Positions 3,001 through 19,860 of a stretch of DNA of 64,000 bases are shown here, in pieces. The stretch's first letter is position 1, and each line of letters opens with the position of its first letter. The DNA is taken from the NCBI GenBank assembly GCA_032249395.1, contig JAVVFY010000003.1, positions 32,001 through 96,000 of the forward strand, written 5' to 3'. The DNA is from Candidatus Aenigmatarchaeota archaeon. GTDB lineage: Archaea; Aenigmatarchaeota; Aenigmatarchaeia; CG10238-14; SpSt-28. Under the pieces are notes generated by a model. It was not told the origin of the DNA. It ran no database searches and saw only the letters and a program-made list of their open reading frames with translations. The position numbers and the translations under genes were made by a program.

Positions 3001-6000
3001 ACTTATGTTTATCTTATCTCCAACATTGAACGTTGAACCGTAAGTTGGCAAATTCAAATTAATGTTCAATTGACCTTTTATTATAAAGCTTGAGTCGCTC
3101 GAATTTGCATCAAAATAACATTGATTACTCGCTATACCAACTTTCCAAGATTGATAACCAACATTGTAGGAGCAATCTGGATTGAAATCATATTCTAGAT
3201 AACCAGAAGCATTAGCATATACAAGATGGCCTTCATCATAAATTCCTGTATCTCTTGTGAACCAGAAGTATCCTTTAACATTTTCTTGACTCAAATCTAA
3301 CCAAGCATTCTTGTCAACATCATAAACTCTAACAACAAACTTTCCATAATTATTGCCATATCTCAAAACTTCTGATGGTACTGATATTGAATAGAATGAA
3401 ACTGTATCTTTTGTTAGCGTAACTGTTATCGGAGATGTCTCATTTCTCAAGCCATATGAGTCGCTAACATTTAGCTTTAGCAAAATTGTTGAGTTTATCA
3501 AATATTCGCTACAATTGAATGAAGGATTAAACTCAAAGTAGCATGTTCCCGTACAATCGCTTGAACTCTTTGAATCAACATAAACCCAATTTACTCCATC
3601 GTATGATTTCCACAAGCTTATGTTTACTGGGTCGCTTGGGTCTGCATCTAAAACTAAAGCACTAACCAAAAAGTAACTTCCCCAACCACCAGAGTCTCTG
3701 TTTATTGAATATGAAGTTATAGCTGGCTTTCTTCTAACTTGGAAAGCATTTGATTTGTATGAATAAGTATCGTTGTAATACTGTTTGCTAACGTTCATGC
3801 TTATATCATACCAACCTATTAGACCAGAACTTGGGAATGAACAAGAATAAGTACCATTACCATAATCATTTACTGGAGAACAAGTTGAATGAATTGGTTC
3901 TATTGTAAATATTGTTGATGTTCCACTTACTCCAGAACTACAATCATCAGAAACATTCCCAACAATCAATATTGGATCTCCTTCTGCAATAACATTTCCA
4001 TTCGGTTGTAATATAGATGAAGTTAAGCTTCCGTAGATTACAACAGTGTAGTTTTGCGAGGCATTGCCAAAGTAATAGCTATCTCCATCAAAAGCTGCTC
4101 TCCAATTCTTTACTCCAACGGAATATCTACAGTCTGGGTCGAAGTTTAATGTAGCAAAGCCTGAAGATGTTGTTGTTCCGTATCTTATCCAACCTGAGTC
4201 TGAGCTAACGTTTATGTATGTTGTGTCAGAACCTTTATCTAATGGTAAATTCGTGAAAGCATCATACAATCTTGCTTCCAATATTGTTGTGTTTGTTCCA
4301 ACTCTACTAACCCAAGAATTGTTTCCTTGTGAATATACCCAATAAGTTCTTCTCTTCGTTACATTAAATGTTTGAATACTTGTTTGAGCTACTCCACCAT
4401 AATTATCGCTAGCGTTTATGAACCATTCATAACTTCCAATATCACTTCCTGAAGTGTAAGATTTTTGTAGAGTTACCGTTACATTTGTACAATTGTTACA
4501 AATTGTAGAAGCTGCTAAACTAAATGCTCCATCTGGCAACTTTCTTATCCATAAGCTAACGTTAACAATATCGTCTTCATCAGTAACATTAACTTTGAAT
4601 GTAAATGTTGAACCCCAAGGAGCCTCTGTTGGAGTTACTGATGGTGCTACTAAAACTGGTGGAACTTCATGGAAGAAAGCGTTTTGTTTAACTTTTGAAG
4701 CATTGTTGTACAAATCTCTAGAAGAATACATGAAAACTGAATACCAACCAGGAGGATTGTTTGAAATATTCCAAGTGCAAGTGTAATATCCGCTAACATA
4801 AGATGCAAAACAGTAATCTTCAAATGCTCCATGCTTTACTTTGTAGAAAACATTAGCATCATTTATTGGATTATTGCATTCATCATTAACTAATCCGCTT
4901 ATCGTCACGTTTTGATTTGATAAGTAAGCTTCTCCATTTGGCTGAGAAATCGTGTTGTTTAGCCATCCTTTAATGTTTACAGTTAATGTTAAAGTTGAGT
5001 TTGCATTTTTGTAACAAGCATCGTTTACTATTCCTGCTTTCCAATATTGTGTTCCAACGTTATAAGAACAATCAGGAGTAAAGACAGCCGAAAGATAGCC
5101 ATTATCTCCTGAAGCTTCCCATGCACTTCCATAATTTACTCCATCATAAGTAACCCATATCTTACCGCTAACATATCTATCTACAAATTGTTTATTGTCT
5201 CTATCGTAAACCTTTATTTTCAGAGTTACACCCTCGCTTCTATTAACCCAAGAGTTATTTCCTAAAGAGTTTGAATCGTAAACGAAATCAACATCGTCTT
5301 TATCTAAGTTAAAGCTTATTGGTGCCATATCAGTCGTGTTTCTTGGATCTGTTGCGTTGAACTTAAAGTAATATGTTCCTATATCGCTACAAGTAAAACC
5401 AGAATAATAAAATGTTAACTCTCTTTTGCTTCCACAATTGTAGCACATTTGAGATGAAATGTAATTCCAATTTACCCCATCTTTAGATAGCCATAAACTA
5501 ACGTTAACATCATCAGCATTGGCATCGCTTACATTGACTTTGAAAGTGTAGTTTTCTCCCCAACCCCAATCGTCCTCTGGAAAAACTGTTGCATCTTCTA
5601 AAACTGGAGGTTGCCAAACGTGAATTATTCTAAATACAGAAACATTTGTGAAGCTTGCGTCGTTATAATAAATAACATTAGAAGCGTTTACTCTAACATT
5701 ATACCATCCTTCTTTTGCTTCAGTAGCGTTGAAAGTACATGAATAAGTTCCATTGCCATAGTCTTGAACGTTATCACAATTATAAACATCACCAAAACCA
5801 ACGCTTATTGGTTCTATTGTTACTGTTGCTCCACTTATGTTTCTCAACTTACATTCATCTTGAACAAAGACGCTTATGTTTATGTAGAGTTGATTTTCTC
5901 TGTAGTAAGTAATTCCATTAGGATAAACAACAAATGGAACCAAATCTCCTATAATCGTTACATTGTATGCTTCGCTGGAAGCATCTTTGTAGCAAGCGTC

Positions 6001-8580
6001 AGCTTGAACATAAGCTACCCAATTTTGCCTTCCTGCATCATATCTGCAATCTGGGTTGAAATTGTATTCTACATATCCACTTGAATTTGTAGAGTTGCTT
6101 CCATCTGTTATAAATGCTGTTCCATTGAAAATGTTAAACCAAACTCTCGGATAGTATTGAACTCCTATTTGAGAGAATGCTGGAGAATTCTTATCTCTAT
6201 CTAAAACATAAATCATGAACTTTGTCGAATTATTTCCGTTTCTGTTAACATAACTTTCGTTTCCTAAAACATAGATTAGAGAAATGTCATCCTTTCTCAA
6301 AGTATGAGAAATGGCGCTTGTGTTTGAATATGTCTGTGGAATATCTGGCTCACTCGCATTAAACATGAAATATCTAATAGCTGCTTGCTGATAATCTGAA
6401 CAAGTGTAATCTCTAGTAAAGTTAACCAAAGTGTAACTTGGATTTTCTATAAATCTACAATCTGTTACTGACCATGGTCCATCTGAAGATGTAGACTCTA
6501 ATAAGCAAACGTTTACGCTAGCATAATGATTAACTATAACGCTGAAATTGTGAATTTCGCCCCAAGAACCATCGTTTGGATACTCAACTTTTGGATTGAT
6601 TAACTCTACTGGTTTTATAAGGAAGAAAGCGTTTTGTTTAAATGATGAAGCATTCAAATAGTATTGTTTTGAAGATTCCATTGATACATTGTACCAACCA
6701 CCAGATTTTCCTGTAGTATCAAACTCACAAACGTAAGTATTTGAAGTGTTTGTTATATAGCCTGAAGATGGACAATAATATTCGTTTGAACCAGAAGTTA
6801 GTTTGAATCTAATGCTTGCATCGCTTATTGGATTCCCACAATCATCATAAACTTCTCCAATCAAATAGATTTTTTCTCCAGCAGTATAGTTTCTATCTCC
6901 AGTTGGAGAGATTATACTGTTTGCTAAACTTCCAACTATTATAACATAGAATTCTTGTGAACTATTGCTCTCATAACAAGCACTACTAACATTAACCTTC
7001 CATTTTCTTAATCCAACTGAATAAGAGCAGCTAGGATTAAAGTTTATGAAGTAATGAGTTTCGTTTGAATAAACAATTTCTTGCTCCCAATTAACATCAT
7101 CTTTAGTTACGTAACCATAAACTTCGTCAGTTGAAATTTCAGTTGTGTAGTTTCCAAAGACTAAATTCTTTATTCTAACCGTCAAATTAACAGTATTTCC
7201 TATCACGCTATCGCTTCTGTTAACAACACTATTATTGCCAGAAGAATAATCTATGGAAATTGGAGTTTTTGTTATGTTGAAAGCTATTACCTGAGTTTCG
7301 TTTTTGAAGGTTGTTGGAGAAGTTGCATTGAATTTGGCATACCAGCTTCCTATATCGCTACAATAAAAGCTTTTCTGAGTAAAGAATTGATAGTTGTTAC
7401 AATTTACGCAAACGCTTGAATTTTCTAATTGCCAATTAGAATTTTCTCTTTTTAGCCATAAGTAAGTGTAAACAGGTTCTCCATCTTCACTTGTAACATA
7501 AACACTAAAGTTGAATGGATTTATTTGCCAGCTTCCTTTTGGATATGGAGAAACTTGAGGATTATCCAGCTTTATGTTTGACGCAACGAAAAATGCATTT
7601 TCTTTAAAGTAAGTTCCATTCCAGTATTTACCAGCTTCGCTTCCTTCAGCAAAAGCTATCATCGTAACGTTATACCAACCAAGAGGAGCATCTTGTGGAA
7701 TTGTCCATGTTGTATAAGTTAGTGGAGCAACTATAGTATAAACTGTGGAGCCGTGAGAAATTATATATTCTACTCCAAAAGATGCACTATCTGTTTTAAC
7801 TAAGCCACAATCATCTTTTATAATGCCATCAAACTCAACAACTTGTCCTCTAGTATAGTTTCTAGAGCCATTTGGATAAAGCATGTAAGAATTGCTTAAG
7901 TCTCCTATCAACCAAAATGGTATTATTGGTGTCACATTATCTTTGTAAGTTGAAGCTCCAAAAACTCCTCCTTTCCAATAGTTTTGCCCCAAGTAATAAT
8001 CTGAAACTTTACACCAACTATCAGAAGTATTTTGCATTGTTCTAACTACATAACCTGTTGAGTTTGCTGAGAGAGATGGAGAAATATCAAAAGTTTCGTT
8101 GCTTCCGTATTTTGATATAAATATTCTTGCTTTTCCTTCATCTACTTGACCGAGCTGCAAATAGTAAGGATAGGTTTGATTGTCGATATCAAAAACAAAC
8201 ATAGTGAATTCAAAAGGCATGCTTCTGTTAACAGTTGCATTTAATATTGGCTGTATTCCAAAAACGCTTATATCGTCCTTTTCAATCGTATAAGCATATC
8301 CTAAAATTTCTGATGAACCATCTGCATTAGTTGCATTGAATTTGAAACTCCAAGCTCCAATAGCGCTTCCATCATATTTGAATGAAAAGTTTAGTTGAGT
8401 CCATTGCAGACAATTGTAACAAACTTGAGAACCAATCAACGAATATTCACTTGCTCCCATTCTATGCCAAGCATAAACAATAACATCTCTTCCAAATCTA
8501 TCTCTCACATAAACTCCAAACTTATAATTCTCTCCCCAACCTCCAACATTTCTAACTTGATCGTCTATGTAGAGAGTAGC
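1..8580 (-). repeat. Tandem array of ~9 degenerate ~320-360 aa protein repeats inside the giant ORF (last copy cut by the window edge)
   Basis: G-x-W-G-like anchor recurs at ~8539, 7531, 6565, 5562, 4616, 3685, 2690, 1665 and 585 (spacing ~930-1080 nt). F-[NDT]-P-[DS]-C anchor recurs at ~7030, 6050, 5070, 4130, 3175, 2195, 1100 and 60. Confidence 0.85.
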
Positions 8581-11500
8581 ATTGGTTAATAGTGGCGAGT
8601 ATTTATAGATTTTTGATTTAACGAACAAGTTTTGAGTTTCATTGAAGAGTTTTCCAGTAGACCAAACATAAGCAATTTTCTCTATGCTAACATTTGAGTA
8701 AGGATTGGTGCTTGAATCTGCATAAGTATCTATGAAAATATTTCTCAAAGAATTAACAAAGTTTGTTGAATCGTTGCTGTCAATTGAATAATTGCTCCAA
8801 ACTTTTGATAAAGCTAATGAATGAGAATAATTTTGCCAGAATATTCTTTTGTTCAATAAATCATCTGCAATTGAAACCTTTGCCTCAGCGATTGTTAGAT
8901 TTTCATCTCCAAAACTATAGTTGATTAAAAATGCAATTTCTTTCATTTTTTCATATCTTGCGTTAATTGGTTTTGTAAACACGAATGGATAAGTTAAGCT
9001 ACAAGAGTTTCCATAACAAGAAATTGAAGTATCGTTAACAAAATAGCTTTCGCTTCTCGTATCCAAAATTCCTTCAGCAACCAAAACTTTCTTTCCTTCT
9101 AATGAACAATTCAAAGTGAAGTTTAAGTAAGAAGAAGAATATACACTCAAAGATGGTAAGCTCCAAGATATCTTTCTTGTTGATGGATTGAAAGTTCCGC
9201 CATTATAAACATTTAAAACGTCGCACTCTTCTGGAATGCTTAAATAAACGCTCCATCCAGAAGCTGTTGTATCGCCAATATTAGTTACTTTAAGGCTGTA
9301 ATTGTAAGCTCTGTTTAGTTGAGAAGATCTTACTTCTGGCCATGGATATTCATCTTGCTGTATTGCCTCTATATCGAATGATAGATGAGACTCTTGATTG
9401 TAAGAAGCTGTTGAAACTGTAAATGGATTTTCTTCTTCAAAGCTTTTTCCATCCCAACTAACATTAAACTTGAAGCTTCCAGTTTTCGAATAAATATTTG
9501 GTGCTTTTACTTGATAAGTTAGAACTGCATACTCATTTACATCAATGTCTCCAAGATTCCAAATTACCAAATTGTTTATCAAATCTACTGAAGAAGAAAG
9601 CAACTGAACGCTGCTCCCATAAACGTTTGTTTTAATGCTTGGATTTGCTGGAGTCCAACCACTTTCCAAAGTCTCAATTATTGTTGCACCAGAAGCTTTA
9701 GCACATCCTTTGTTGTGAACTACTAATCTACTTTCGAAAACTTTATCTGGTGAAACAAATGGAGGAGTTTCTCTTATGACTTCAAGAATTGCTATTGAAT
9801 TGCTTTCTTGAATTTGGAAAGTTGCTGTTTTTGTTTTTTGAGTTATGTGATTGTAATTAACAATTGCTTGAATGTTTGCCAACTCGCTTGTTGAATTGCT
9901 CGAAGTTAAAGTGAACTGAGCATAATACTTTCCGGGAGTTATTGCTTTAACAAGTTGATAAGATGGGGTGAATGTCCAGCCAGTTGGAACAGAAAGAGTT
10001 ACATTGTAATCTATTTCTTCGTTGAATGGATGATATATTTCTACAATGAATGGTTCGCTAGTGGAATTGCACATCCAATTGCTTCCTTTAGCATTAACAG
10101 TAACGTCTTTAATGGTTAATAATTCAACTCTAGTAGAAACGTTTGAATTGTAAACAAATGTTGCAATTATATTGTAATTTCCTTCACTCCAAGCTTGAGT
10201 ATCAATGTTTGAGAAGTTTGCTATGTAACTAGATTTTTGATTCAAAAGTAAAGGTGAGCTAGATGAATAAACAACATTACCATAAGCATCTGTTATGTTT
10301 AAGTAAAGCGTTCCAGAAATTTGTTGGTTGAATGAGTTTGAAAGAATTACAGAAATGTTCAAGTATCTATCTGTTTTTTCCAATCCTTTTACAGAAATGC
10401 CATTAACGTTTGTATCTACATCTTGAATCAAAACAGTTTCATTGTAGTAAGCAGAAAGCTTTAGGCCAGAAATGTTTACAGGATTGTCACCAATGTTTGT
10501 AATTCTTATTTTGCAATAGCCAGTTTCACTTGGCTGAATTTGTTTTTCTAATATTGGAATGAAGAGAGAAGATGGAGAAGTGAAGTAGAGAGAATGAGAA
10601 ACATCTAACCAATAAGTTCCGTTGTAAACCTCTATTCTAATTTTTCCATCTTGCAAGCTTGAGGAATAAGTGGAAATTGAAAGATTAGCTATTCTGTAAC
10701 TTCCAGCTTCACAAACAAAATTGAACTCTTTAGCTTCATTTGAATTGAGCAAATATGGCAATTCTTCTTGAGAAAAAGTTTCACTCATGAACTTATAAGT
10801 AAAAACATTTATCGTTAAGCTATCGTTTTCGGCGTTGCTTGAATTAACAAATATTATTATTTGGTTTGACGAATAGGTTGTTGGGTAAATGTTGAACCAA
10901 ATTGTTTTTAATTCTCCAACGCTAACATTTCCAACATATTTTGTTGTTGAATCTGCTTGCCACCCAGTTGGCAAAGTCAAATTAACATAAACATCATTCG
11001 CTACAGTACCGCTTGGTCCCAAAGTTCCAACTGTAACTCCAAGAGTGAAGTTTTTGTATTGGAAGGCTTCTTTTGGTTGTTTGATTTCTCCTATTTTTAT
11101 TTGAGGTTTACAACCAGAAGTATCTATTGAAATGTTGAAGTAGCTTGTTGTGTATGGCTTGTAATATGGCTCATCTGAAGCTATTTCAGCATACCAATAT
11201 TGATCTCCGCTAGAAAAGCTACAATCTGGAGTAAAGTAGAATTCTGCGTATCCAGAAGAGTTTGTTATGTTTGATCCTATAATTTTATCGTAAAGGCCAT
11301 TATACTTTATTCTAAATGTAACAGTTGCTGCCGGATTCAAATTGTAGGTTTGTGCATCTAAATCGTAAACTCTAACAACAAACTTAGCTGATTGAGCAGG
11401 AGAATATTTAGCAAAGCTATTGTTACCTTCTACATAGCTTATATTAACATCATCTTTTTCTACAGTTACATACAAAACTTGAGTAGTTTCTGCCCCATCC

Positions 11501-14500
11501 ATCTTAAACTGATAATACCAATTTCCTATGTCGTTTGCAGTAAAGTTTCTATACCAATACTTTGTTGAATTTATGCAATTGGAGCATTCATTCGGAGTTT
11601 GATTTATGCAAGTTGGGGCTTCACATTTGAATATTGGCGGCCATGTTTTTCCCATATACAAGCTAACGTTTAGAACGTTTTCTGAATCACCTGAAGAAGC
11701 TTTTACCGAAAAGTTCCAATTTGGATAACCCCAACCTTCAGATAGTGGATAAGCTTGTGGATTTTCCAATTTTTTGATTGGCAACAAGTAGAACAAGCCA
11801 GGATATAAAGCATTAACTGTTGAGTTGGGATAATGATAATCTTTACTTGCATACATTGTTGTGTTGTACCAGCCCATTGGAGTTAAAATATCAGTTTGCC
11901 AATCGCAAGTGTAAGCGTTAGCACCTACTTGATATACTGGCAAACATTCAAAGCTTTGAGTTGATTTATTAGCAAAGAATCTCACGTTTGTTGTTAATGC
12001 ATCTCCACAATCATCAGTAGTTGCTCCTAAAAAGCTTACTTTTTGTTCTTGTGTGAAGTTTGTCGTACCATCTGGCTTTTGGAAGTTTAAGATTATATCT
12101 CCTGTAACCAAGACTGAAAGATTGACAAAATTTTCTGTTGAATTATCAAAGTAACAAGCATGACCACTAACAACTGCCTTCCATTTCTGATATCCAACTT
12201 GATATTTTGGCGAGCATTTTGCTTGGAAGTAGTAATTAGCATAAGCTGATTCGTTTGTTGAATTAGTTGTTCCAGAATCGTAAATGTTTCCATCTAATGT
12301 TACGTAAAATGTTACTGGCAAGTTTGTTATTAGAGTGTTATTCTTATCTCTAACCCTCAAAGCAAGCAAAGTTGTTGTTTTTCCTCTTCTCGTTTCTGTA
12401 CCATTGCCAATAATATCTTCAAAGAATATTGTGTCTTTTGTTATTGTGAATGTTGTTGAAGTTGAGTTTGTTGTTCCTGCATTGTTTGTAGCGTTAAACT
12501 TAACGAAAACTGGAGAACCTATATCGCTACAATCGGCGTCAAACTCAAAAGTAAAGTTTATCCAATCTCCAGTATTTCCAGCACCTGGAGCAGGATAAAC
12601 ATCACAACCTACTAACCTCCAAGGCTCTGAACCAGTTTTGCTAAAGTATGAGCAAACTTGAACATCGTTTTCTGAATTTGTAACTCTAACGCTTACATTA
12701 AAAGTAAAGTTGAATCCCCAGCTTCCAGTGGAAGTTCCTGTTTCTTTTGAAATTACCAGTGGATTTTCCATTTCAATGGTTGCTGGTGGTAAGCCAACTA
12801 AAACATCATTGCAAGACATTACTTCAGTTGAATTTTCAGTTGAATTTGCTCTTATGCAAATTGTGTAAGTTCCTGCAGTATTTGCTGTAATGTTCCATTT
12901 TGCTTCTCTAATTCCGTTCAATTCTATAGTTCCAAGGTAATTGACGTCACTTAAATCACCAGTAGCATTTCTAATTTCTAAAACTCCTGGGCCAGTGTAA
13001 TTTATTACAGCAATAACATTGCTTGCGTTTCCTGGGCCAAAGTTTGTTATTGTTGAGCTTGCATTGAAAGGCTGATTTAAAAATGGATTGTTAGGAGAGA
13101 AGCTTGGTTGACTAACTGTTAAACTTGCTCCACATGCAATGAAAATATCATATGGTTCGTCTAAGAATGTGAATGTTCCGTTTGTTGGAATTGCTTGAAA
13201 TCTGAAAGTACCATTGGTCTGGAAAGTTACATTAATTGTGTAATTGTAAATTTTAGTTCCGTCAAGTCTTCCGAAGGGTGAACCAAAATTTATTCCTCCG
13301 TCCCAATTGATTTTTCTTGCATCATCTATTGTTGCTGTTGTTGGGAGGGATGACCAAGGATATTGAAATATTAAATCTTGCGGGTGCGTTACTGTAATGT
13401 TATATTTATTTTCTGTAATATTTGCATTTATCAATGGTAAGTTGCCTTTATTCCATGTTTGTAAAGATACATTGAAAATACCGCAACCTACAGTTGATGG
13501 AAAACCTGTTTTATAGCTTGTTGAAGTATCATTGTAAAGTCTTTGTGTTTTGATCCATGGACCTTCTACAACTAAAGGTATAACATCATCAGTAAACAAC
13601 CACATTGTTGGAGATTGAGCAGTGTAAGATCTTCCTATAGTTCTAATAAATATATGTTTTCCTCCTGGAGTAATATGAGGTATATTGCTAACATCTAAAT
13701 TGAAAGTAAGAGATACAAAACCATTATTTGATGGAACTGAAAACAATAAACCTCCTTTAAACCAAACGGTCCATCTTACAACCCATCCTTCATCGGGAGA
13801 ACCATATGGATAGCCTGGTGCTGGTGGGACACCAAGATCAGCTCCTGCTGAGCTTCTCCAAACAAAATTTTTCGGAGTTAAACCCGGTGGGAAATGTATT
13901 TCAACATCGTAGATATCGCTAAAAGTACCAGCTCCACCCCCACTTCCAAAAAGTCTAATTTCTACGCCAACATTTGTAGAATTTGCAGGAATTTTAGTGA
14001 TGTTTATTCCATATACAGTAGAACCTCCGGCTCTACCACTTCTTGCAGGGAAGAAAGCTAATTCCGGATCTGTTGTTATAGAGAAAGTTTGCCCAGTTAC
14101 AGGATCATTCCATACAACTTGAGCTATAAATTCCTCTGGAAATGTATCTCCACTACCAGGATATCTAACTAAAAACCATTGGCATTGTGAAGTTGAAATA
14201 TTGTAATTTAGCCATTTGACTTCTCCTTTTACAGGAGTTACGCTAGCTGCTGGTACTTGAAAATCTGATGCTGATAAAGTACGAGTAAAATCTGTTAGGT
14301 TATAAGTTATATTGTAGTCACCATAGTTACATACCGTAATATTGCGCCAAACCGTACCGCTACCAGCTGATTGAGTTACTGCAGTTGCATAAGAAGGTGT
14401 TACTGTTGTTAAAGTTAGTGGAGAGGGTTTAATTCCTAAAGACTCTACTTGGAATATTTTATCATGAACGATTTCTGGTTTGTTTGGAGATTTTATTCTA

Positions 14501-17500
14501 ATTCTTGCTATGTATTTTTTTGAAGCATCCACATCATCAGGAATTTTTACATGCCAAACAGTATCATTAAACGACCAATTACCAATTTGTGATGGTGGCG
14601 TACTCTTTACAAATACGCTTCTGTCAGCACCTTCAAGAATAAACCAATTCTGTTTATTTCCTTGTTCATCTAAAATTTCTAAAGATACATTGGCAATTAA
14701 GTCGTTTGTAGTGTTGTAATTTCCTATAGGCGCTACTACTAGCGCCCAATAACCACCAATAACTTTATCTTTTGCGTGGGTAGATACAACTATATCTCTT
14801 GCAAGATTGATATCATTACAATCTATAACTCTAATGTTCTGCTTATCTGTATCTTTTTGTGGTGCTGTTGGATGTAGAGGATGGAATATACGAAGCGTAT
14901 ATTCGCCGAGCTCTACATCATTAGTTATGTTTAAGAAATATGTTCCCCAAAAACATTTATCATTTACTCCTCCTCCTAATTGACAACCATCAGCATTTCC
15001 TAATTCAGTTCCTGAAATTGGAACATCATTAGCTATAAATCCGAGAGAAGGCATATCAGAGAATACTACATCATTTTTTCTTTTAACTTGTAACTTAAGA
15101 TTGCCTGCTGATGTTGGATCATCATCTGCATTATCAATTAGAGTAAAGTTTATTGTATAATTGTACCCTCTGCATAACGTTAAAGGATCGGCACGAAAAC
15201 TAGTTTGATTAAAGTAAAAATCCCAACCAAATAAGTAAAATCTTAAATCTTCTGCAAGTATAGTCCAGCTTCTGCTTTCCTTAAATGTTTCTCCATTGTT
15301 GTAATGCATTTCTACTGGACCAAGAAGGTAAATTCTTGGAAATAGTGGGGGTAAGTCAAAGGAGTAATTCAACAAAATTCTTTCTCCCTTTCTAATATTC
15401 GGTAAATTCCAAACTATTAAAATCTCTTCTGGATTCTTGATTATCACCCCATCACTTTTAATATTCAAAAATTCAGTAGGAACGCGCTCAATTACAGTTA
15501 AGTTGTAGGCATCTATCTTTGCTATTATATTCAAAGAAACAGTAGTTCTTGCTTCAACCCTTATTTTCGTAGGAAATTCATCTAAAAATGGCTCTTGCCT
15601 CAATATATCAAAGGGATAAAATTCTTTAACTTCGAAGTTTGTGGAGTATTCATTGCTTACGTTCAAACCTTCTTCAACACGTACATATACAGAGTAATTG
15701 CCTACTTCACTTACAGTATAATTAGCTACATAAGTCCCGTCAAATCTATTTAAAATTTCTGTAGGATTTATTATCGTTTTTTTACCAGAAGGATTAGTTA
15801 CTTCTATAAAAACTATAGCATTTGTAACAGCCTTACCTTCGGCATTTAAAGCGCCAACAACTATTCTAACAGTTTCCCCAGGAGAGAAAGTCCCTGCACC
15901 AACATATACAGTTCTTTTAAAGCCATTATTAGAAATTTCCAGTGCCTTTAAAGTATTTACATTTACTAAACCGACAGCAAAGCTAATTTCTTCTTCAACC
16001 ACTTCCTCTCCAGGATTCGGACTTACATAACTCAATTTAACTTTAAGCTTGTACAAACCTGGCCTAAATTCTCTTTCTGCATCTAACTCAACAACAAACT
16101 TTCCAGGACCAACTTGAGTATAATTAACTTCAGTTATATTTCCATCTGGATCTACAACAAAAGCTTGCAAAGTAGCATTTGGAAATATTTCGCCAGTATC
16201 TTCATAAATAGCTGAAATCTCAAACCTTATTTTTTCTCCAAGCTCATAATTGAACTTCTCTTGCTTAACTTTTGGTTTTACTTTTATGTGCTTCAAAACA
16301 TTGAAATCAAGAGTTTTGCTTGCATTTCCAAATTCACTTTCAGCAAAAATTTCTGCTGAATATTTACCATAAGCTTTTGGCAAAATTTCAAAAGTGAAAT
16401 TAAAGCTACCATTAACAAATTGCTCATCCTCAAAAACGACTTTACCTTTAACATCTTTAACTATAAGCTTAACTCTAGAATTAACCAAATTTCCATTGTA
16501 GTTAACATTTCCGTAAATTGAAACGACTTTCCAATCGCCTTTTCCTTTTGTGATATTTTTAACTGAATAAAATGCTTCGACTGATGGAACAAAACTTATT
16601 TTAGGTTGCGAATAGTTAGATACAACAAAATAAAAGCTTGTTTCATTTTTCAAGCCTAATGCTTCTATTATCAAATAATAAATTCCATCTTCGCTAAAGT
16701 TAGCAATTAGAGAAGAATTAAAGCTACCGTTAACAATTTCTATTTCTTTTGAAAGCAAGAGAGAAGAATTAAATTGCAAGCTTAAGTTTGCGGTAGCATT
16801 AACTTTTTCTCCATCAACAACAAGTTCTCCAAAAATGTTAATTGTTTCGTTTGAAGTGTAATTTGATTTATCAGTTAAAATTGTCAAGTATGTCTGATTA
16901 GTTTGAGTAATATTTTCACTTACGTTTTCAGAAGGAATTGTAGTTGTTGTTACAGAAGTTGTAGTAGTTATCTCTTCTTTTCTCTCAATTGTTATTTCAG
17001 CTTCACTTGGATTCAAATAATCTTTTTCACTTCCTTTGAAAACTGCTTTTACTTTTGATGCATTGATAAGATTAAAAGAAAATGTTGAAATTCCAGAATC
17101 ATCTGTAAAATTGCTACCGACAAAATTCCCATCAACATAAAATTCTATTTCTTTATTTGGAACAAAAGAACCATTATCGAGCAAAAGCTTAGCAGCTATT
17201 AAACCATTCTCAACTTTCAAATCTATTGAAGTGTTTGCAAAAACTTCAACTTTAATGCTTTCTTCAACAACATTAGAAACTCCAATAAATCTTCCCGTAA
17301 TATTACTCCAGTTTGTTGCTAAAAGAATTGCAGAAGCTAGAGCAATGAAAAGTAAAGAAGTAATTATTTGGGTTTGTCCCTTCAAACTTTTTTTCGATTT
17401 TAAATTTAGTAATGCAAAAAAGAAAAGAATTGCAAAAGAAATTGCAAATGGTAAGAAAATTAAGAAAGGTAAAGTTAAGTATGGCAAAAATTCTTCAATA

Positions 17501-17532
17501 AGACTTTGACTTTTTAGTTTAAACTTACTCAT
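1..17532 (-). CDS. Giant cell-surface/adhesin-like protein, >=5,844 aa, 3'-truncated by the window edge
   Basis: ATG at 17532 overlaps the end of the upstream gene and gives MSKFKLKSQSLIEEFLPYLTLPFLIF...KGQTQIITSLLFIALASAILL. The same frame reads as protein at every point I translated (e.g. 5640-5461 ...PPVLEDATVFPEDDWGWGENYTFKVNVSDANADDVNVSLW; 60-1 DCNYTTGRQIWFIELNDTCY). The ORF track lists no terminated ORF in this frame, consistent with no stop before base 1. Alternative TTG start at 17385 (MKGQTQII). Confidence 0.9.
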   Translation of the reverse strand, partial: MSKFKLKSQSLIEEFLPYLTLPFLIFLPFAISFAILFFFALLNLKSKKSLKGQTQIITSLLFIALASAILLATNWSNITGRFIGVSNVVEESIKVEVFANTSIDLKVENGLIAAKLLLDNGSFVPNKEIEFYVDGNFVGSNFTDDSGISTFSFNLINASKVKAVFKGSEKDYLNPSEAEITIERKEEITTTTSVTTTTIPSENVSENITQTNQTYLTILTDKSNYTSNETINIFGELVVDGEKVNATANLSLQFNSSLLLSKEIEIVNGSFNSSLIANFSEDGIYYLIIEALGLKNETSFYFVVSNYSQPKISFVPSVEAFYSVKNITKGKGDWKVVSIYGNVNYNGNLVNSRVKLIVKDVKGKVVFEDEQFVNGSFNFTFEILPKAYGKYSAEIFAESEFGNASKTLDFNVLKHIKVKPKVKQEKFNYELGEKIRFEISAIYEDTGEIFPNATLQAFVVDPDGNITEVNYTQVGPGKFVVELDAEREFRPGLYKLKVKLSYVSPNPGEEVVEEEISFAVGLVNVNTLKALEISNNGFKRTVYVGAGTFSPGETVRIVVGALNAEGKAVTNAIVFIEVTNPSGKKTIINPTEILNRFDGTYVANYTVSEVGNYSVYVRVEEGLNVSNEYSTNFEVKEFYPFDILRQEPFLDEFPTKIRVEARTTVSLNIIAKIDAYNLTVIERVPTEFLNIKSDGVIIKNPEEILIVWNLPNIRKGERILLNYSFDLPPLFPRIYLLGPVEMHYNNGETFKESRSWTILAEDLRFYLFGWDFYFNQTSFRADPLTLCRGYNYTINFTLIDNADDDPTSAGNLKLQVKRKNDVVFSDMPSLGFIANDVPISGTELGNADGCQLGGGVNDKCFWGTYFLNITNDVELGEYTLRIFHPLHPTAPQKDTDKQNIRVIDCNDINLARDIVVSTHAKDKVIGGYWALVVAPIGNYNTTNDLIANVSLEILDEQGNKQNWFILEGADRSVFVKSTPPSQIGNWSFNDTVWHVKIPDDVDASKKYIARIRIKSPNKPEIVHDKIFQVESLGIKPSPLTLTTVTPSYATAVTQSAGSGTVWRNITVCNYGDYNITYNLTDFTRTLSASDFQVPAASVTPVKGEVKWLNYNISTSQCQWFLVRYPGSGDTFPEEFIAQVVWNDPVTGQTFSITTDPELAFFPARSGRAGGSTVYGINITKIPANSTNVGVEIRLFGSGGGAGTFSDIYDVEIHFPPGLTPKNFVWRSSAGADLGVPPAPGYPYGSPDEGWVVRWTVWFKGGLLFSVPSNNGFVSLTFNLDVSNIPHITPGGKHIFIRTIGRSYTAQSPTMWLFTDDVIPLVVEGPWIKTQRLYNDTSTSYKTGFPSTVGCGIFNVSLQTWNKGNLPLINANITENKYNITVTHPQDLIFQYPWSSLPTTATIDDARKINWDGGINFGSPFGRLDGTKIYNYTINVTFQTNGTFRFQAIPTNGTFTFLDEPYDIFIACGASLTVSQPSFSPNNPFLNQPFNASSTITNFGPGNASNVIAVINYTGPGVLEIRNATGDLSDVNYLGTIELNGIREAKWNITANTAGTYTICIRANSTENSTEVMSCNDVLVGLPPATIEMENPLVISKETGTSTGSWGFNFTFNVSVRVTNSENDVQVCSYFSKTGSEPWRLVGCDVYPAPGAGNTGDWINFTFEFDADCSDIGSPVFVKFNATNNAGTTNSTSTTFTITKDTIFFEDIIGNGTETRRGKTTTLLALRVRDKNNTLITNLPVTFYVTLDGNIYDSGTTNSTNESAYANYYFQAKCSPKYQVGYQKWKAVVSGHACYFDNSTENFVNLSVLVTGDIILNFQKPDGTTNFTQEQKVSFLGATTDDCGDALTTNVRFFANKSTQSFECLPVYQVGANAYTCDWQTDILTPMGWYNTTMYASKDYHYPNSTVNALYPGLFYLLPIKKLENPQAYPLSEGWGYPNWNFSVKASSGDSENVLNVSLYMGKTWPPIFKCEAPTCINQTPNECSNCINSTKYWYRNFTANDIGNWYYQFKMDGAETTQVLYVTVEKDDVNISYVEGNNSFAKYSPAQSAKFVVRVYDLDAQTYNLNPAATVTFRIKYNGLYDKIIGSNITNSSGYAEFYFTPDCSFSSGDQYWYAEIASDEPYYKPYTTSYFNISIDTSGCKPQIKIGEIKQPKEAFQYKNFTLGVTVGTLGPSGTVANDVYVNLTLPTGWQADSTTKYVGNVSVGELKTIWFNIYPTTYSSNQIIIFVNSSNAENDSLTINVFTYKFMSETFSQEELPYLLNSNEAKEFNFVCEAGSYRIANLSISTYSSSLQDGKIRIEVYNGTYWLDVSHSLYFTSPSSLFIPILEKQIQPSETGYCKIRITNIGDNPVNISGLKLSAYYNETVLIQDVDTNVNGISVKGLEKTDRYLNISVILSNSFNQQISGTLYLNITDAYGNVVYSSSSPLLLNQKSSYIANFSNIDTQAWSEGNYNIIATFVYNSNVSTRVELLTIKDVTVNAKGSNWMCNSTSEPFIVEIYHPFNEEIDYNVTLSVPTGWTFTPSYQLVKAITPGKYYAQFTLTSSNSTSELANIQAIVNYNHITQKTKTATFQIQESNSIAILEVIRETPPFVSPDKVFESRLVVHNKGCAKASGATIIETLESGWTPANPSIKTNVYGSSVQLLSSSVDLINNLVIWNLGDIDVNEYAVLTYQVKAPNIYSKTGSFKFNVSWDGKSFEEENPFTVSTASYNQESHLSFDIEAIQQDEYPWPEVRSSQLNRAYNYSLKVTNIGDTTASGWSVYLSIPEECDVLNVYNGGTFNPSTRKISWSLPSLSVYSSSYLNFTLNCSLEGKKVLVAEGILDTRSESYFVNDTSISCYGNSCSLTYPFVFTKPINARYEKMKEIAFLINYSFGDENLTIAEAKVSIADDLLNKRIFWQNYSHSLALSKVWSNYSIDSNDSTNFVNSLRNIFIDTYADSSTNPYSNVSIEKIAYVWSTGKLFNETQNLFVKSKIYKYSPLLTNATLYIDDQVRNVGGWGENYKFGVYVRDRFGRDVIVYAWHRMGASEYSLIGSQVCYNCLQWTQLNFSFKYDGSAIGAWSFKFNATNADGSSEILGYAYTIEKDDISVFGIQPILNATVNRSMPFEFTMFVFDIDNQTYPYYLQLGQVDEGKARIFISKYGSNETFDISPSLSANSTGYVVRTMQNTSDSWCKVSDYYLGQNYWKGGVFGASTYKDNVTPIIPFWLIGDLSNSYMLYPNGSRNYTRGQVVEFDGIIKDDCGLVKTDSASFGVEYIISHGSTVYTIVAPLTYTTWTIPQDAPLGWYNVTMIAFAEGSEAGKYWNGTYFKENAFFVASNIKLDNPQVSPYPKGSWQINPFNFSVYVTSEDGEPVYTYLWLKRENSNWQLENSSVCVNCNNYQFFTQKSFYCSDIGSWYAKFNATSPTTFKNETQVIAFNITKTPISIDYSSGNNSVVNRSDSVIGNTVNLTVRIKNLVFGNYTTEISTDEVYGYVTKDDVNWEQEIVYSNETHYFINFNPSCSYSVGLRKWKVNVSSACYESNSSQEFYVIIVGSLANSIISPTGDRNYTAGEKIYLIGEVYDDCGNPISDASIRFKLTSGSNEYYCPSSGYITNTSNTYVCEFDTTGKSGGWYNVSMESSKQYYLNASSFKQNAFFLIKPVELINPKVEYPNDGSWGEIHNFSVIVNHYASVNVCLLESTSSDGPWSVTDCRFIENPSYTLVNFTRDYTCSDYQQAAIRYFMFNASEPDIPQTYSNTSAISHTLRKDDISLIYVLGNESYVNRNGNNSTKFMIYVLDRDKNSPAFSQIGVQYYPRVWFNIFNGTAFITDGSNSTNSSGYVEYNFNPDCRYDAGRQNWVAYVQADACYKDASSEAYNVTIIGDLVPFVVYPNGITYYRENQLYINISVFVQDECKLRNISGATVTIEPISVGFGDVYNCDNVQDYGNGTYSCTFNATEAKEGWYNVRVNASNVIYYNDASFTNVSVFRIIHVWQPPVLEDATVFPEDDWGWGENYTFKVNVSDANADDVNVSLWLSKDGVNWNYISSQMCYNCGSKRELTFYYSGFTCSDIGTYYFKFNATDPRNTTDMAPISFNLDKDDVDFVYDSNSLGNNSWVNRSEGVTLKIKVYDRDNKQFVDRYVSGKIWVTYDGVNYGSAWEASGDNGYLSAVFTPDCSYNVGTQYWKAGIVNDACYKNANSTLTLTVNIKGWLNNTISQPNGEAYLSNQNVTISGLVNDECNNPINDANVFYKVKHGAFEDYCFASYVSGYYTCTWNISNNPPGWYSVFMYSSRDLYNNASKVKQNAFFHEVPPVLVAPSVTPTEAPWGSTFTFKVNVTDEDDIVNVSLWIRKLPDGAFSLAASTICNNCTNVTVTLQKSYTSGSDIGSYEWFINASDNYGGVAQTSIQTFNVTKRRTYWVYSQGNNSWVSRVGTNTTILEARLYDAFTNLPLDKGSDTTYINVSSDSGWIRYGTTTSSGFATLNFDPDCRYSVGVKNWRAAFDGDSYYFGNASQNYTVVIYGSLTSSILQPNGNVIAEGDPILIVGNVSDDCSSGVSGTSTIFTIEPIHSTCSPVNDYGNGTYSCSFPSSGLIGWYDISMNVSKQYYNDTYSYKSNAFQVRRKPAITSYSINRDSGGWGSYFLVSALVLDADPSDPVNISLWKSYDGVNWVYVDSKSSSDCTGTCYFEFNPSFNCSEYLINSTILLKLNVSDSYGLRNETSPITVTLTKDTVSFYSISVPSEVLRYGNNYGKFVVRVYDVDKNAWLDLSQENVKGYFWFTRDTGIYDEGHLVYANASGYLEYDFNPDCSYNVGYQSWKVGIASNQCYFDANSSDSSFIIKGQLNINLNLPTYGSTFNVGDKINISWNVYSDCYLNSSVRDSGNISEVSNVLTLSSGSYSSSCSPINEDNGNYNCTWDSTSKAEGYWNITIQASKTYYSTNTTTFANWFWLENRPPIVSNLNVTPNAAGWGSLFNYSAYVEDPENDTVTCSLYVKTNDNWAHKGSKTISTPGVCYIEVNDFTCEDQGIASFYFVVNDTFNRVNTSDSEISIGPAITKNSISLTLVSGDGAKVNRSDSNIGNTVSFVIRALDLTRNSLPLANTNLTFYVTYDQTNFKPYYTQTNSSGYASLDFNPDCQFSTGKQAWFAKVENDACYFETYTNTTPTQNYTVEVYGDLVLDVISPKGEKYLRGDYPDGQNVNLTARITSDCEIEGGIYANANFSVSQGSIVNYCNPVEYLGNGYYTCSLNTSGFRAKGWNVTFNASKSYYNSNSTLEIFEIWKKGFWIETKPILTTDFYTISYDSLGRVGDGGWGELWVFRVNITDEDDDLLEVKLWINRTDNGEWYQLPSNMTAYDRGINKTITFMLRLPSPTVLGSPSAVGPHAFMFNVSEYQDIFGNQTKDFPQNVYQTNNGTLIYKKDDVIIEHVVGNSTSVYRPGNNIQTLTVRVYDVDKGEYAIGSPGAAIFVTTDFYNYITISGTSSISPGGYINTSLTQFNPDCSFAIGPQKWKAGVLDSNPFYKPTNSSEFTITIVTDTLNVNYISPKDGKIYIKSPTPADYLILVANVTDECGGVRGATTNFYIQRGDTIRECRSIGSVVDFNNGTYACNITNSTLNSNYELIYGYWNVSVNASKQYYNDSLTTQQTNAFYLASRPTLTTYSYYVTAGNFTNGWGDLWQFKVDVEDEDRTGELGSLVNVSLWINRTGDWEYIGSMTCIPPCEGSDALVFTTSFSCSDIGTHTFKFNATDNLFVYDNRLKSESSKQTFTVDKEWADVYIQSGDGSSVYRPGYETAILQGYILDWSKGGTYATDLGIKGYLYITKDRNNFGDPIEIYTGSDGLFTYYFDPDCNYTTGRQIWFIELNDTCY
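11110..12790 (-). repeat. Two further copies (one complete, one partial) of the same protein repeat
   Basis: GSWGF at ~12721 and EGWGY at ~11733, with KDD, VRVYD and FTPDC motifs like the main array. Confidence 0.75.
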
Positions 17533-18118
17533 AAGCTACTCTCACCTTTATCTCACTTTCTCCAAGTTTCGTTGATAAATCGCTTTTAACAGAAAACTCT
17601 AACTCGCAATAAGAGTTTACTTCGATTACATTGCAAACTTTTTCTAAGGCGTCTGTCGAAAATCCTTTCGGCAAATCGACAGATACTCGAACGTTTGTGG
17701 CATTAGCACTTCCTTCATTGCTAACAACAACTCTTAACAAGAAACTCTCTCCTCTTGTTATTCTGCTTTTATCGGTGCTTAATCTCAAAGAGATTTTTGG
17801 TTTTGCGATAATTTCTGTTGTTTGAGAAATTTGCGTAGCAGATGTCGAAACGTTTTCACTTGCTCCATTTTCTTCTGTGCTATTAGATTCATTCATTTGA
17901 GTAAGTTCAGAAGAAGTTGTATTCGACGAGTCGACAGATTGTTGTGAAGTTGAGTTTTCAGAAACCAAATTTGTCGAAGCTGACTGTTCACTCGAATTTT
18001 CATTTGTTGTCAAATTTAGTGAGCTGTTCATAGCTTCTTGAGCAATCGACAAGTAGAAAAAGAAAGAAAAGGCTAAGAAAATTGCCAATAAAGCTAGAAA
18101 TTGGGCTTTTCCCTTCAT
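17525..18118 (-). CDS. Secreted/membrane-anchored protein with S/T/N-rich linker and C-terminal Ig-like (CARDB/DUF11-like) domain
   Basis: MKGKAQ plus hydrophobic stretch, a low-complexity linker with many N-x-S/T sequons, and a beta-rich C-terminus (VVSNEGSANATNVRVSVDLPKGF). Its stop overlaps the giant ORF start, suggesting an operon. Confidence 0.75.
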   Translation of the reverse strand: MKGKAQFLALLAIFLAFSFFFYLSIAQEAMNSSLNLTTNENSSEQSASTNLVSENSTSQQSVDSSNTTSSELTQMNESNSTEENGASENVSTSATQISQTTEIIAKPKISLRLSTDKSRITRGESFLLRVVVSNEGSANATNVRVSVDLPKGFSTDALEKVCNVIEVNSYCELEFSVKSDLSTKLGESEIKVRVAYE

Positions 18119-18273
18119 TTTTAACTCCTATTGCTTAACACTAATGATAAGCAGAGTTGTTTGTCGACCCATATATAATTTTTTTAACAACCTGTCGAGA
18201 GTGAAAATCGACAGTTCGACACCTCGACAAAAAAGAAGAATAGCTTTTATTTTTAGAATAAAAGAAAGAATAT
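18119..18273. promoter_or_regulatory. Divergent promoter region between the surface-protein operon and the wHTH gene
   Basis: TATA-like ATATATAATT (18171-18180) and minus-strand SD AGGAG (18125-18129) for the leftward operon. TTTTATT at ~18245 lies ~25 nt upstream of ATG 18274. Five TCGAC motifs fall in this interval. Confidence 0.5.
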
Positions 18274-18675
18274 ATGCTTAAAGAGATTTTTGGTTTGAAA
18301 AAAGAAAACAAAGATGAAAAAATTGATGAGATGATTAAGTTAATTGATTCTCAGCTCTCTATGATTTCTATGGAAATTGAGAAGTTGAAGAATTTGGGTT
18401 CTAAAATTGAGAATATTGAGAAAAAAATAGCAATTTTAGAAGAGCTTATTAAAGAACAAGGAGTCGAAATAAAGCCAAAACCGGTTAGTGAGAAAACAAA
18501 AGAAGCAATAAAGACTTTGTTGAAGAGATATGGAAGCTTAAATGCCTGGCAGGTTGCCAAATTATTAAACATGTCTAGAACAAGATGCGCAGAATATCTT
18601 AAGCAAATGGAAGAAGAGGGGATTTTAGTCTCTCAATGGAAGAGTCGAAAAAAGTACTATTCGATTCGACAGTAA
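18274..18675 (+). CDS. Coiled-coil plus C-terminal winged-helix DNA-binding protein
   Basis: Heptad-rich N-half. C-terminal LNAWQVAKLLNMSRTRCAEYLKQMEEEGILVSQWKSRKKYY is a typical wHTH with wing. Confidence 0.8.
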   Translation: MLKEIFGLKKENKDEKIDEMIKLIDSQLSMISMEIEKLKNLGSKIENIEKKIAILEELIKEQGVEIKPKPVSEKTKEAIKTLLKRYGSLNAWQVAKLLNMSRTRCAEYLKQMEEEGILVSQWKSRKKYYSIRQ

Positions 18676-19243
18676 AATTTTTCGATGAAGTTTTTATTCG
18701 ACAGATCGACTTTATCCTCTCTATAGATTGTTCCCCTATGAAGTTTGTTTATTTTCAAGAATTTCGACAGTTTAACAAGCTTTATTTTTTGAGTAGTCTG
18801 AAGAAAGTAAGAGGAATTCTGAGTTGTCGAAAATCCGACAGTTATAATAGCTAGTTAGTTTTATTATTTTTTCTGTCGAAGTAGTTGTCGAGATGCTGTT
18901 GGGAGAGAATTGAACAAAAAATGCATTATTGAAGGTGCATTCATCTCAATCTGTCGACAAAAATCGACTGTTTTTCTGAAATTCTCTACTTACTAGAGAT
19001 AAAAATCTGAAGAGAGAAAAAATTTTGAGAGTTGAAGTATTTATCTTTAGCATTTTTAATTTTATTTCTAACTATCTAATCAACTCGACACTTATTTAGA
19101 AATTTTGGGCTTTAGCCTAAGTAAGCCTAAAATGCCAAGAAAAACCTCAAGATCATAATTTTTGGCCCCTGAGGACAAAAATCATCACAGACCTTTTTAT
19201 CCTCTTAGCATAAGATTTCAAATTTTTAAGTATCTCTAGTTCA

Positions 19244-19320
19244 AAATGCTCCACTTGGATCACTTCATACTTCTTAAATTTTAAAAATCAACGCAGATAA
19301 ATTGTCTAAGTGGAACATTT
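19244..19320. repeat. Imperfect inverted repeat (ORB/mini-ORB-like) flanking an AT-rich spacer
   Basis: AAATGCTCCACTTGGAT (19244-19260) versus the reverse complement of 19304-19320, AAATGTTCCACTTAGAC: 14/17 identical, with a 43-nt AT-rich spacer. Confidence 0.45.
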
Positions 19321-19787: not shown

Positions 19788-19860
19788 GGGCGGGTAGCTT
19801 AGTGGCTGGAGCGCTCGGCTGATAACCGAGAGGTCGTGGGTTCGAATCCCACCCCGCCCA
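19788..19860 (+). tRNA. tRNA-Ile(GAU)
   Basis: Acceptor GGGCGGG/CCCGCCC, anticodon arm CTCGG-CTGATAA-CCGAG, T arm GTGGG-TTCGAAT-CCCAC; CCA not encoded. Confidence 0.95.

Follow-up and report, generated by a model that had tools for sequence, protein, structure and literature searches.

Genes and sequence motifs at the locus

The genome of a Candidatus Aenigmatarchaeota archaeon (assembly GCA_032249395.1; 752,806 bp in 25 contigs, approximately 32% GC) harbours a small gene which is embedded in a field of short repeated motifs and is adjacent to the gene of a giant surface protein. The archaeon is a tiny symbiont of the DPANN type. The protein encoded by the small gene, here named CC-wHTH, has a coiled coil at its N-terminus and a winged helix-turn-helix (wHTH) domain at its C-terminus. 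The locus belongs to a stretch of 64,000 nt, in the following called the window (positions 32,001 to 96,000 of contig JAVVFY010000003.1, corresponding to G000:C3:32001-96000), and positions without a contig name are those of the window. DNA of the window is contained in hot-spring metagenome runs. The repeated motif is the hexamer TGTCGA, which was counted on both strands (TGTCGA/TCGACA). The locus comprises the following features, with the basis of each assignment in brackets:

1..17532, minus strand: 5' part of an open reading frame (ORF) for a giant surface protein, more than 5,844 aa of it inside the window (ORF, homology)
17525..18118, minus strand: first gene of the operon, encoding a 197-aa secreted protein and containing six hexamer sites (ORF, domain search)
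17653..19090, no strand: hexamer field with 20 exact TGTCGA/TCGACA and 27 GTCGA cores in both orientations (sequence)
18119..18273, no strand: divergent promoter region of 155 bp with five sites, at 18162, 18193, 18208, 18216 and 18224 (sequence)
18134..18151, minus strand: conserved element in the predicted operon leader, cttaacactaatgataag on the plus strand (alignment)
18170..18179, minus strand: predicted TATA box of the operon, AAAAAAA-TTATATAT (sequence and alignment; putative promoter)
18245..18256, plus strand: predicted TATA-like box of the CC-wHTH gene, CTTTTATTTTTA, approximately 24 nt 5' of the ATG (sequence; putative promoter)
18274..18675, plus strand: CC-wHTH gene, 133 aa (ORF, Pfam, model)
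18676..19090, no strand: non-coding 3' field with eight exact hexamers (sequence)

The 197-aa gene and the giant gene form one operon, in which the 197-aa gene ends 8 nt inside the giant ORF, and from which the CC-wHTH gene is transcribed divergently. The 197-aa protein has a signal peptide, a Ser/Thr-rich linker and a beta-sandwich of the NEW3/DUF11 type. The giant ORF carries MG2 and filamin-type domains and is orthologous to the giant ORFs which adjoin the CC-wHTH gene in relatives. The product of the gene proposed below to be controlled is a giant extracellular DPANN protein, rich in repeats and anchored in the membrane.

A hexamer field that is unique in the genome

The genome contains 165 hexamers in total, 20 of which are located between 17654 and 19090. 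In a genome-wide scan, the densest 1.5-kb stretch at this locus contained 19 hexamers and the densest stretch anywhere else four, in line with an initial annotation of this DNA, which had described the motif as rare elsewhere in the window and had proposed such a scan. The window as a whole has 32 hexamers, as compared to 11.6 +/- 3.4 in dinucleotide-preserving shuffles, and none of 100 shuffles reached 32. The core GTCGA occurs 50 times in the window, 27 times within the field. When k-mers in the region 17601-19150 were compared without bias to the remaining genome, 27 copies of GTCGA were observed versus 0.72 expected and 20 copies of TCGACA versus 0.30 expected; among the top k-mers was also CTGTCGA, with 10 of its 28 genomic copies at the locus.

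The 20 exact sites are distributed over the whole locus: the 197-aa gene contains six and the divergent gap five, another one (TCGACA at 18666-18671) is formed by the final codons of the 133-aa gene, and eight follow behind this gene, so that nine sites are found from 18666 to 19090. They form two inverted pairs (CTGTCGA-16 nt-TCGACAG at 17653-17682 and CTGTCGA-9 nt-TCGACAG at 18192-18214), a TCGACA triplet with a period of 8 bp (18208, 18216 and 18224) and the palindrome TGTCGACA at 18952-18959. We looked for a fixed spacing or helical phasing and found no dominant distance between the sites; those of 2 bp (the palindrome), 8, 12 and 15 bp recur, as does one of 94 bp, which reflects homologous positions within the gene. 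A logo of 166 sites from 15 loci gave the extended consensus W-W-Y-TGTCGA-W. All pairs, the triplet and the palindrome had been noticed at the same positions in the initial annotation. Its estimate of approximately 24 motifs in 1.4 kb was right about the field and has to be corrected to 20 exact hexamers, or 27 if the 5-mer core is counted. Similarly, the motif was said to be written into the codons of both flanking genes, which applies to the 197-aa gene on the left and not to the right side, since 18676-19090 is non-coding. We also considered a restriction-site or compositional island, and rejected it because the motif is asymmetric and is conserved together with the CC-wHTH gene across lineages of 26-56% GC.

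Apart from this field, the only hexamer cluster in the genome is located at C12:417-538, where four hexamers lie in a 120-bp non-coding segment at the end of a contig. It consists of a TATA-like run followed by TTGTCGACATAAATCGACAG, and it could be a second target promoter, the gene of which was lost to the assembly break. The palindrome TGTCGACA is also present at 35535-35542, within a small gene in which it encodes Leu-Ser-Thr-Asp. The GC-skew minimum of the window (32-34 kb) is nearby, which is probably a coincidence.

Sites adjacent to predicted TATA boxes

On the operon strand, the elements are in the order AAAAAAA-TTATATAT-GGG-TCGACA, followed after approximately 45 nt by AGGAG and then by the ATG. 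Thus, one hexamer (TCGACA at 18162-18167) lies 3-4 nt 3' of the predicted operon TATA box, while TCGACAG at 18193-18199 is located just upstream of the A-run. The ATATAT and the GTCGA cores are invariant in all four aligned genus-level rows. This arrangement is also found in relatives, the loci of which are described below: a hexamer is present at a distance of 2-6 nt from the operon-side TATA-like box in 12 of 15 loci inspected by eye, and in 16 of 27 loci when a strict pattern was applied. Furthermore, the CC-wHTH gene itself has a hexamer immediately behind its TATA-like box, 17-54 nt before the ATG, in 10 of 27 loci, as expected under autoregulation. In the genus of the window, the phased TCGACA triplet instead ends 16 nt upstream of this box. 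Positions next to the TATA box are those at which archaeal repressors block the recruitment of RNA polymerase.

Between the predicted operon TATA box and the Shine-Dalgarno sequence, the element cttaacactaatgataag is near-invariant in four congeneric genomes. It is an imperfect inverted repeat, and a second operator and an RNA hairpin are both candidates for its role.

Selection on the sites at the DNA level

Sequence comparison revealed that two or three congeners have retained the hexamers of the 3' field and of the divergent gap, while the DNA between them has diverged. In the 197-aa gene the sites occupy all three frames and make use of rare codons, TCG accounting for 7 of 35 Ser codons as compared to 5.6% genome-wide; one of these sites is TGTCTA in G002. 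The last codons of the CC-wHTH gene, ATT CGA CAG TAA, form a site in which Arg-Gln is written CGA CAG, and CGA makes up 2 of the 5 Arg codons of this gene versus 2.7% genome-wide. In other lineages Leu-Ser-Arg of the recognition helix itself is written (C/T)TG TCG AGA. Together, the alignments and the codon usage show selection acting at the DNA level to maintain the sites.

At the locus L107 (G057:C2, 56% GC), His-Arg-His-Thr of a second wHTH domain, which is described below, is written CAT CGA CAC ACC and thus contains TCGACA. This codon coincidence mirrors the Leu-Ser-Arg = TGTCGA in the CC-wHTH gene.

The CC-wHTH protein

The 133-aa protein consists of a heptad coiled coil (approximately residues 17-61), a linker and a winged helix (71-131) with the recognition helix SRTRCxEY and the wing RKKYY. 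The only Pfam family above its cut-off is HTH_24 (26.7 bits; cut-off 21.9). No NCBIfam model exceeded its cut-off, the scores for MarR and for the ArsR models of NCBIfam were below theirs, and NCBIfam, a PDB sequence search and the ESM Atlas yielded no named family except generic wHTH. An AlphaFold2 model based on 31 homologues (predicted local distance difference test, pLDDT, 87.9) shows a long helix 2-61, a linker of low confidence and a canonical wHTH 71-131, in which helices 71-86, 91-98 and 102-114 and the strands 118-123 and 126-131, all with pLDDT >90, make up the winged helix. At the heptad positions a (24, 31, 38, 45, 52, 59) and d (35, 41, 48, 55), 29-31 of 31 homologues have a hydrophobic residue. 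This heptad pattern identifies the N-terminal helix as a conserved coiled coil, by which the protein may self-associate. S101, R102, R104, E107 and Y108 of the recognition helix and K126, K127 and Y129 of the wing are invariant in 31 of 31 homologues; thus, an invariant recognition helix and wing accompany an invariant hexamer. We detected no sensor domain in the protein.

The closest Foldseek matches were the MarR/ArsR-type proteins AdcR (5jls), CadC (1u2w) and YusO (1s3j), with E of about 5e-4, and AspA of the plasmid pNOB8 (5k5q) was found at rank 34 with a template modelling (TM) score of 0.42. Two known families were considered and rejected. Membership in the TrmB family is not supported because the match to PF01978 (23.4 bits) is below the cut-off of 25.6, the order of the domains is reversed with the coiled coil first, and there is no C-terminal sugar-binding domain. 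As for Lrp/AsnC, the similarity to Lrp chains (2l4a, 2p5v) is limited to the HTH part, the RAM domain is missing and the wHTH is C-terminal. A large protein database contained 54 relatives, of which the named ones are annotated in Aenigmatarchaeota as 'winged helix-turn-helix domain-containing protein' or carry generic regulator labels.

Conservation of gene, motif and synteny

Full-length CC-wHTH homologues were found in 35 of 61 relatives, and 118 of 301 sampled genomes of the phylum gave profile matches at E<=1e-12. We compared 32 loci, namely the window and 18 others plus 13 from further families, and counted the hexamers in the 1.6 kb surrounding the gene, with the expected number taken from a first-order Markov model. 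In this comparison, which the initial annotation had proposed for homologous loci, the hexamer was enriched at P<1e-3 at 26 of the 32 loci. The gene order is similarly conserved: in 27 of 32 loci (15/19 and 12/13) the CC-wHTH gene is oriented head-to-head with a giant ORF or with its contig-cut N-terminal part, often with a gene of 130-420 aa in between. The exceptions are L048, L096, the two genus g2 loci L039 and L047, and L046, the contig of which breaks off behind the small gene. The giants are mutually homologous across their first 1,500 residues. On the opposite, downstream side of the CC-wHTH gene the neighbours vary by lineage, so that synteny is conserved only on the giant-gene side. 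At a further locus, in a 56%-GC region of G057, the layout is unchanged.

Genus g2 is informative because the regulator gene and the giant gene are separated there. Its homologue is 38% identical to CC-wHTH and has the identical recognition helix, and it is the last gene of a different cluster with no hexamers around. In the g2 genome G015, which contains 49 hexamers in total, the single cluster consists of three TCGACA in 112 bp (C1:57884-57996). It fills the 160-bp gap immediately 5' of the giant orthologue, a 9,184-aa frame with 35% identity to the giant of the window over 1,231 aa, and is located 42 kb from the CC-wHTH gene. TATA-like runs precede two of the three clustered hexamers. The motif therefore follows the promoter of the giant gene and not the regulator gene.

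With the N-terminal 1,500 residues of the giant as query, an orthologue was found in all three module-carrying genomes that were searched (G015, G042 with an 11,249-aa frame and G057 with a 9,076-aa frame) and in none of the 12 other genomes searched. Eight of these 12 are without a profile match (G027, G019, G033, G045, G009, G028, G036 and G040), and four have matches at the wHTH level or in a different context only (G039, G031, G055 and G302).

The cluster that contains the homologue in genus g2 (L039 and L047, in G015 and G012) encodes two ParA/MinD-like ATPases and, in addition to secreted proteins, several coiled-coil proteins of large size (633-1,045 aa).

A second wHTH domain in the divergent operons

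In 14 of 28 module loci, and in addition in G057 (L107), a second wHTH heads the first protein of the operon or the giant ORF. It stands at the start of the giant ORF in L033, L034, L037, L041, L101 and L102 and at the start of the first operon gene in L042, L043, L093-L095, L098, L100 and L103. Its signature is HPEGLT..SLA...G.HRHT..KYV with the recognition helix HRHT..KY, and presumably it is located on the cytoplasmic side of the membrane anchor. TGTACA or TTGTACAA palindromes occur near the operon start in 11 of the 14 loci with the second wHTH and in 1 of the 14 without it, and TGTCGA is present in all 28. Based on this co-occurrence, TGTACA may be assigned to the second wHTH. Since TGTACA tracks the second wHTH, CC-wHTH is the sole DNA-binding candidate common to all TGTCGA fields. 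The operon in the window does not contain the second wHTH, and three homologues of it are encoded elsewhere in the genome (C3:3102-3299, C3:437-697 and C5:42830-42997).

The region downstream of the CC-wHTH gene

The CC-wHTH gene is followed by 1.1 kb without a supported gene and then by tRNA-Ile (19787-19862), beyond which thymidylate kinase (tmk), a DUF763 gene and a LAGLIDADG ORF are found. The DUF763 gene (437 bits; 20616-21683, minus strand) adjoins the free-standing LAGLIDADG-type ORF (21689-22576, minus strand), which has an N-terminal HTH similar to region 4 of sigma-70. A 72-aa ORF at 18636-18854 was rejected as a gene, as it has no family match and only its hexamers are conserved in congeners. 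Similarly, we rejected a promoter inside the 3' field, because the TATA-like run before 18874 is not kept in congeners. Contigs of the metatranscriptome run X20, which stem from a relative with 90-95% identity, cover the 5' part of the giant gene, the 197-aa gene and the CC-wHTH gene, and none is on 18678-19645; as contigs cannot show transcription, transcription starts or their absence, no conclusion was drawn from them.

A model for the function of the hexamer field

The conserved pairing of gene and motif, their link to the promoter of the giant operon and the site adjacent to its predicted TATA box indicate that CC-wHTH and the hexamer may constitute a conserved on/off control unit for a giant surface-protein gene rather than a replication origin. 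We consider it likely that CC-wHTH is a sequence-specific transcription factor of an uncharacterised, Aenigmatarchaeota-wide family, that it is autoregulated and probably acts as a repressor, and that the field serves it as a multi-site operator controlling the divergent giant-protein operon. Among the functions proposed in the initial annotation, it is thus the cooperative operator that agrees with our data, in particular with the finding that the motif follows the giant gene.

According to this model, CC-wHTH would self-associate via its N-terminal coiled coil and so present two or more flexibly linked winged helices. Each of these C-terminal heads, on its flexible linker, would bind a single TGTCGA hexamer, which would explain the two orientations and the many different spacings of the sites. 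Occupancy of the TATA-adjacent operon site would control the operon, most likely by repression, with the recruitment of RNA polymerase being blocked, and this occupancy may be stabilised by cooperative contacts with further sites, which are located upstream, within the initial 0.6 kb that is transcribed and downstream of the regulator's own gene. CC-wHTH would also control its own gene and, in most lineages, occupy the TATA-adjacent site of its own promoter. The very costly operon would thereby stay repressed until some signal releases it, and since the protein has no sensor domain, a partner or titration may be needed for this release.

Several observations weigh against this model. At 6 of the 32 loci the hexamer was not enriched at P<1e-3, three of them being borderline (2-4e-3) and three (L039, L047 and L048) not enriched at all. 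The TATA-adjacent site is weak or missing in 3 of the 15 loci inspected by eye (L036, L040 and L044), and the strict pattern misses 11 of 27, in three of which the gene start is mis-set and the true intergenic region was unscanned. The site at 17843 is lost in a related strain. The promoters and transcription start sites are predictions read from sequence only, and because of the relatedness of the loci the counts cannot be taken as independent. The co-absence of the giant gene and the module is weak evidence, because the two genes are usually adjacent, giants assemble badly, and a single assembly gap is possible in metagenome-assembled genomes. The genome itself encodes paralogous wHTH proteins, which in principle are possible binders. 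Finally, an ordinary repressor does not need approximately 20 sites over 1.4 kb, which suggests that probably more than simple occlusion takes place.

In this respect it is tempting to think of a locus-specific looped or spread complex which the coiled coil would build on the approximately 20 hexamers, resulting in a dedicated and possibly bistable silencer by which giant-gene expression is chosen cell by cell. We regard this as rather unlikely. Such a complex would take in the two promoters together with the CC-wHTH gene and the initial 0.6 kb of the operon, and its target would be a 34-kb gene corresponding to approximately 4.6% of the genome. In many relatives it would work together with the membrane-tethered second wHTH at the N-terminus of the giant or of its partner, so that the state of the cell surface could feed back on the same promoter.

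Alternative explanations

The array could be truly cis-regulatory and yet be read by another factor, such as a paralogous small wHTH protein, CC-wHTH being merely a co-regulated neighbour. The three homologues of the second wHTH in the genome and the large distance between the sites and the CC-wHTH gene in G015 are compatible with this, and binding of the hexamer by CC-wHTH is itself deduced. However, all 28 loci share no DNA-binding gene other than that of CC-wHTH, the second wHTH goes with a different motif, TGTACA, the regulator's own TATA-like box is followed by sites in 10 of 27 loci, and both the recognition helix and the motif are invariant, so that we regard another binder as improbable. 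Hardly plausible at all is that the inverted TGTCGA pairs are recombination sites of an invertible promoter conferring phase variation on the giant gene. Inverted pairs do flank the promoter region (17653/17676 and 18193/18208), and bacterial giant adhesin genes are often phase-variable. Nevertheless, most of the sites lack a matching inverted partner, the neighbourhood contains no recombinase gene (the LAGLIDADG ORF at 21689-22576 is of the homing-endonuclease type), and no strand-changing joint was reported among the contigs of four runs, although contigs can miss rare forms.

The initial annotation had also suggested an iteron-type origin with its own WhiP-like initiator and a centromere-like partition site, neither of which is borne out. 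A chromosomal origin similar to iterons or origin recognition boxes (ORB), with CC-wHTH as dedicated initiator or origin-binding protein, would fit a unique, dense repeat array in both orientations by a long non-coding stretch and a DNA-binding gene, and within +/-1.5 kb of the genome's orc1/cdc6 gene we saw no obvious repeat array or convincing ORB-like family. Still, orc1/cdc6 is located on another contig (C1:105590-106438); in G006 it is at C1:353566 and the module at 48545, 305 kb apart, and in G053 and G042 the two are on different contigs. GC skew, which is moderate evidence because raw skew is confounded by gene orientation, does not turn at the module either: on G006:C1 (481 kb) the cumulative minimum is at approximately 200 kb, and the module, again the unique densest hexamer locus (7 of 56 hexamers, at 48.5 kb), is 150 kb away on a monotone limb with a skew of -0.13/-0.14 on its two sides, while in the window the cumulative minimum is at approximately 32-34 kb and not at 18 kb. 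In addition, synteny is kept only on the giant-gene side, the sites abut TATA-like boxes, in G015 they remain at the giant promoter with the protein gene elsewhere, and Pfam, NCBIfam, PDB sequence and fold searches revealed a single wHTH with no similarity to Orc1, Cdt1/WhiP or Rep. An origin is thus highly unlikely. The same applies to a centromere bound by CC-wHTH in the manner of AspA, which we think very improbable. Many short, partly intragenic sites around a small wHTH protein are reminiscent of such a system, AspA is among the fold matches, and the genus g2 homologue is encoded near ParA/MinD-like genes. This reading is not supported because the gene maps show no ATPase of the ParA/SegA type adjoining the module in the window or in 27 module loci; moreover, the field is anchored on promoters, the AspA match (TM 0.42) is generic, the motif follows the giant gene in G015, and the paired TGTCGACA found there 7 kb from the homologue are codons (V-L-S-T, I-V-D-T) of a ParA/MinD-like gene.

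Some additional observations on replication were made. The skew of G006:C1 is V-shaped, and its minimum at 200-205 kb may mark the replication origin of that genus. The Orc1/Cdc6 of the present genome (a 348-aa frame) matches TIGR02928 only over 1-302 of 366 and has no Pfam Cdc6_C match, which suggests that its C-terminal winged helix is very divergent or shortened. The pattern TCGACA-N0-30-TCGACA was searched across the 61 relatives and discarded as it did not discriminate in GC-richer genomes, and its recurrent match TCGACAATTAATCGACA was within 23S rRNA.

Comparison to known systems

An autoregulated winged-helix regulator with its operator is a known type; unusual are the operator field and the target. 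With the MarR/ArsR-type repressors such as AdcR, CadC and YusO, CC-wHTH has in common the wHTH fold, the small size, the divergent arrangement and sites overlapping both promoters. In contrast to the helical bundle of MarR and the alpha1/alpha5 interface of ArsR, its predicted dimerisation element is a single N-terminal coiled-coil helix of 60 residues, and no ligand or metal site is evident. Moreover, instead of one or two palindromes, approximately 20 single hexamers at variable spacing are present, reaching into coding DNA.

Archaeal repressors like MDR1, LrpA, Phr and, at some promoters, TrmB bind between the TATA box and the transcription start and block the recruitment of RNA polymerase. 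The hexamer just downstream of the operon TATA-like box, and elsewhere also of the regulator's own box, resembles these cases. CC-wHTH differs from them in belonging to another family and in having many extra distal and intragenic sites, and for CC-wHTH repression is a prediction. AspA of pNOB8, TrmBL2 and Lrs14 are small archaeal wHTH proteins that coat DNA or spread along it, and could be a model for the 1.4-kb field. However, AspA starts at one palindromic centromere and works with ParB/ParA, and TrmBL2 and Lrs14 act genome-wide, whereas the sites described here are discrete, locus-specific and promoter-anchored.

Regarding the target, the giant resembles SPEARE-type giant surface proteins in being a giant, membrane-anchored, repeat-rich extracellular DPANN protein. 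To our knowledge, no regulator or operator was described for the giant surface-protein genes of DPANN archaea. The closest functional analogue seems to be the ArlRS-MgrA cascade of Staphylococcus aureus, in which, as one study reports, the giant proteins Ebh, SraP and SasG are repressed (PMC6548404). There, as is proposed here, a small winged-helix regulator gates giant surface proteins, the untimely expression of which is costly or alters adhesion. MgrA is different in being bacterial, a global regulator and encoded elsewhere, and we claim homology only at the level of the wHTH fold. We know of no motif field for MgrA. Full-text literature searches, as judged by titles and the openings of abstracts, returned nothing on the CC-wHTH family, a TGTCGA operator or the regulation of giant genes in DPANN archaea, and as far as these searches reach, the initial description of an undescribed DNA-protein module holds.

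Significance

The identification of this module is of interest for several reasons. At the DNA level, operator sites which are kept inside coding sequence at the cost of rare codons are a clear case of overlapping selection on DNA and protein. Should a repressive complex of higher order indeed form on the array, this would be one of the rare cases in which archaea silence a specific locus. Last but not least, no genes of DPANN archaea are more conspicuous and costly than those of the giant surface proteins, which are thought to mediate contact to the host cell, and regulators are very few in these organisms. The locus described here provides a testable handle, consisting of a soluble 133-aa protein, the production of which should be easy, a 6-bp motif and defined promoter fragments. 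In addition, more than 25 genomes provide natural variants, among them a lineage in which regulator and target are separated.

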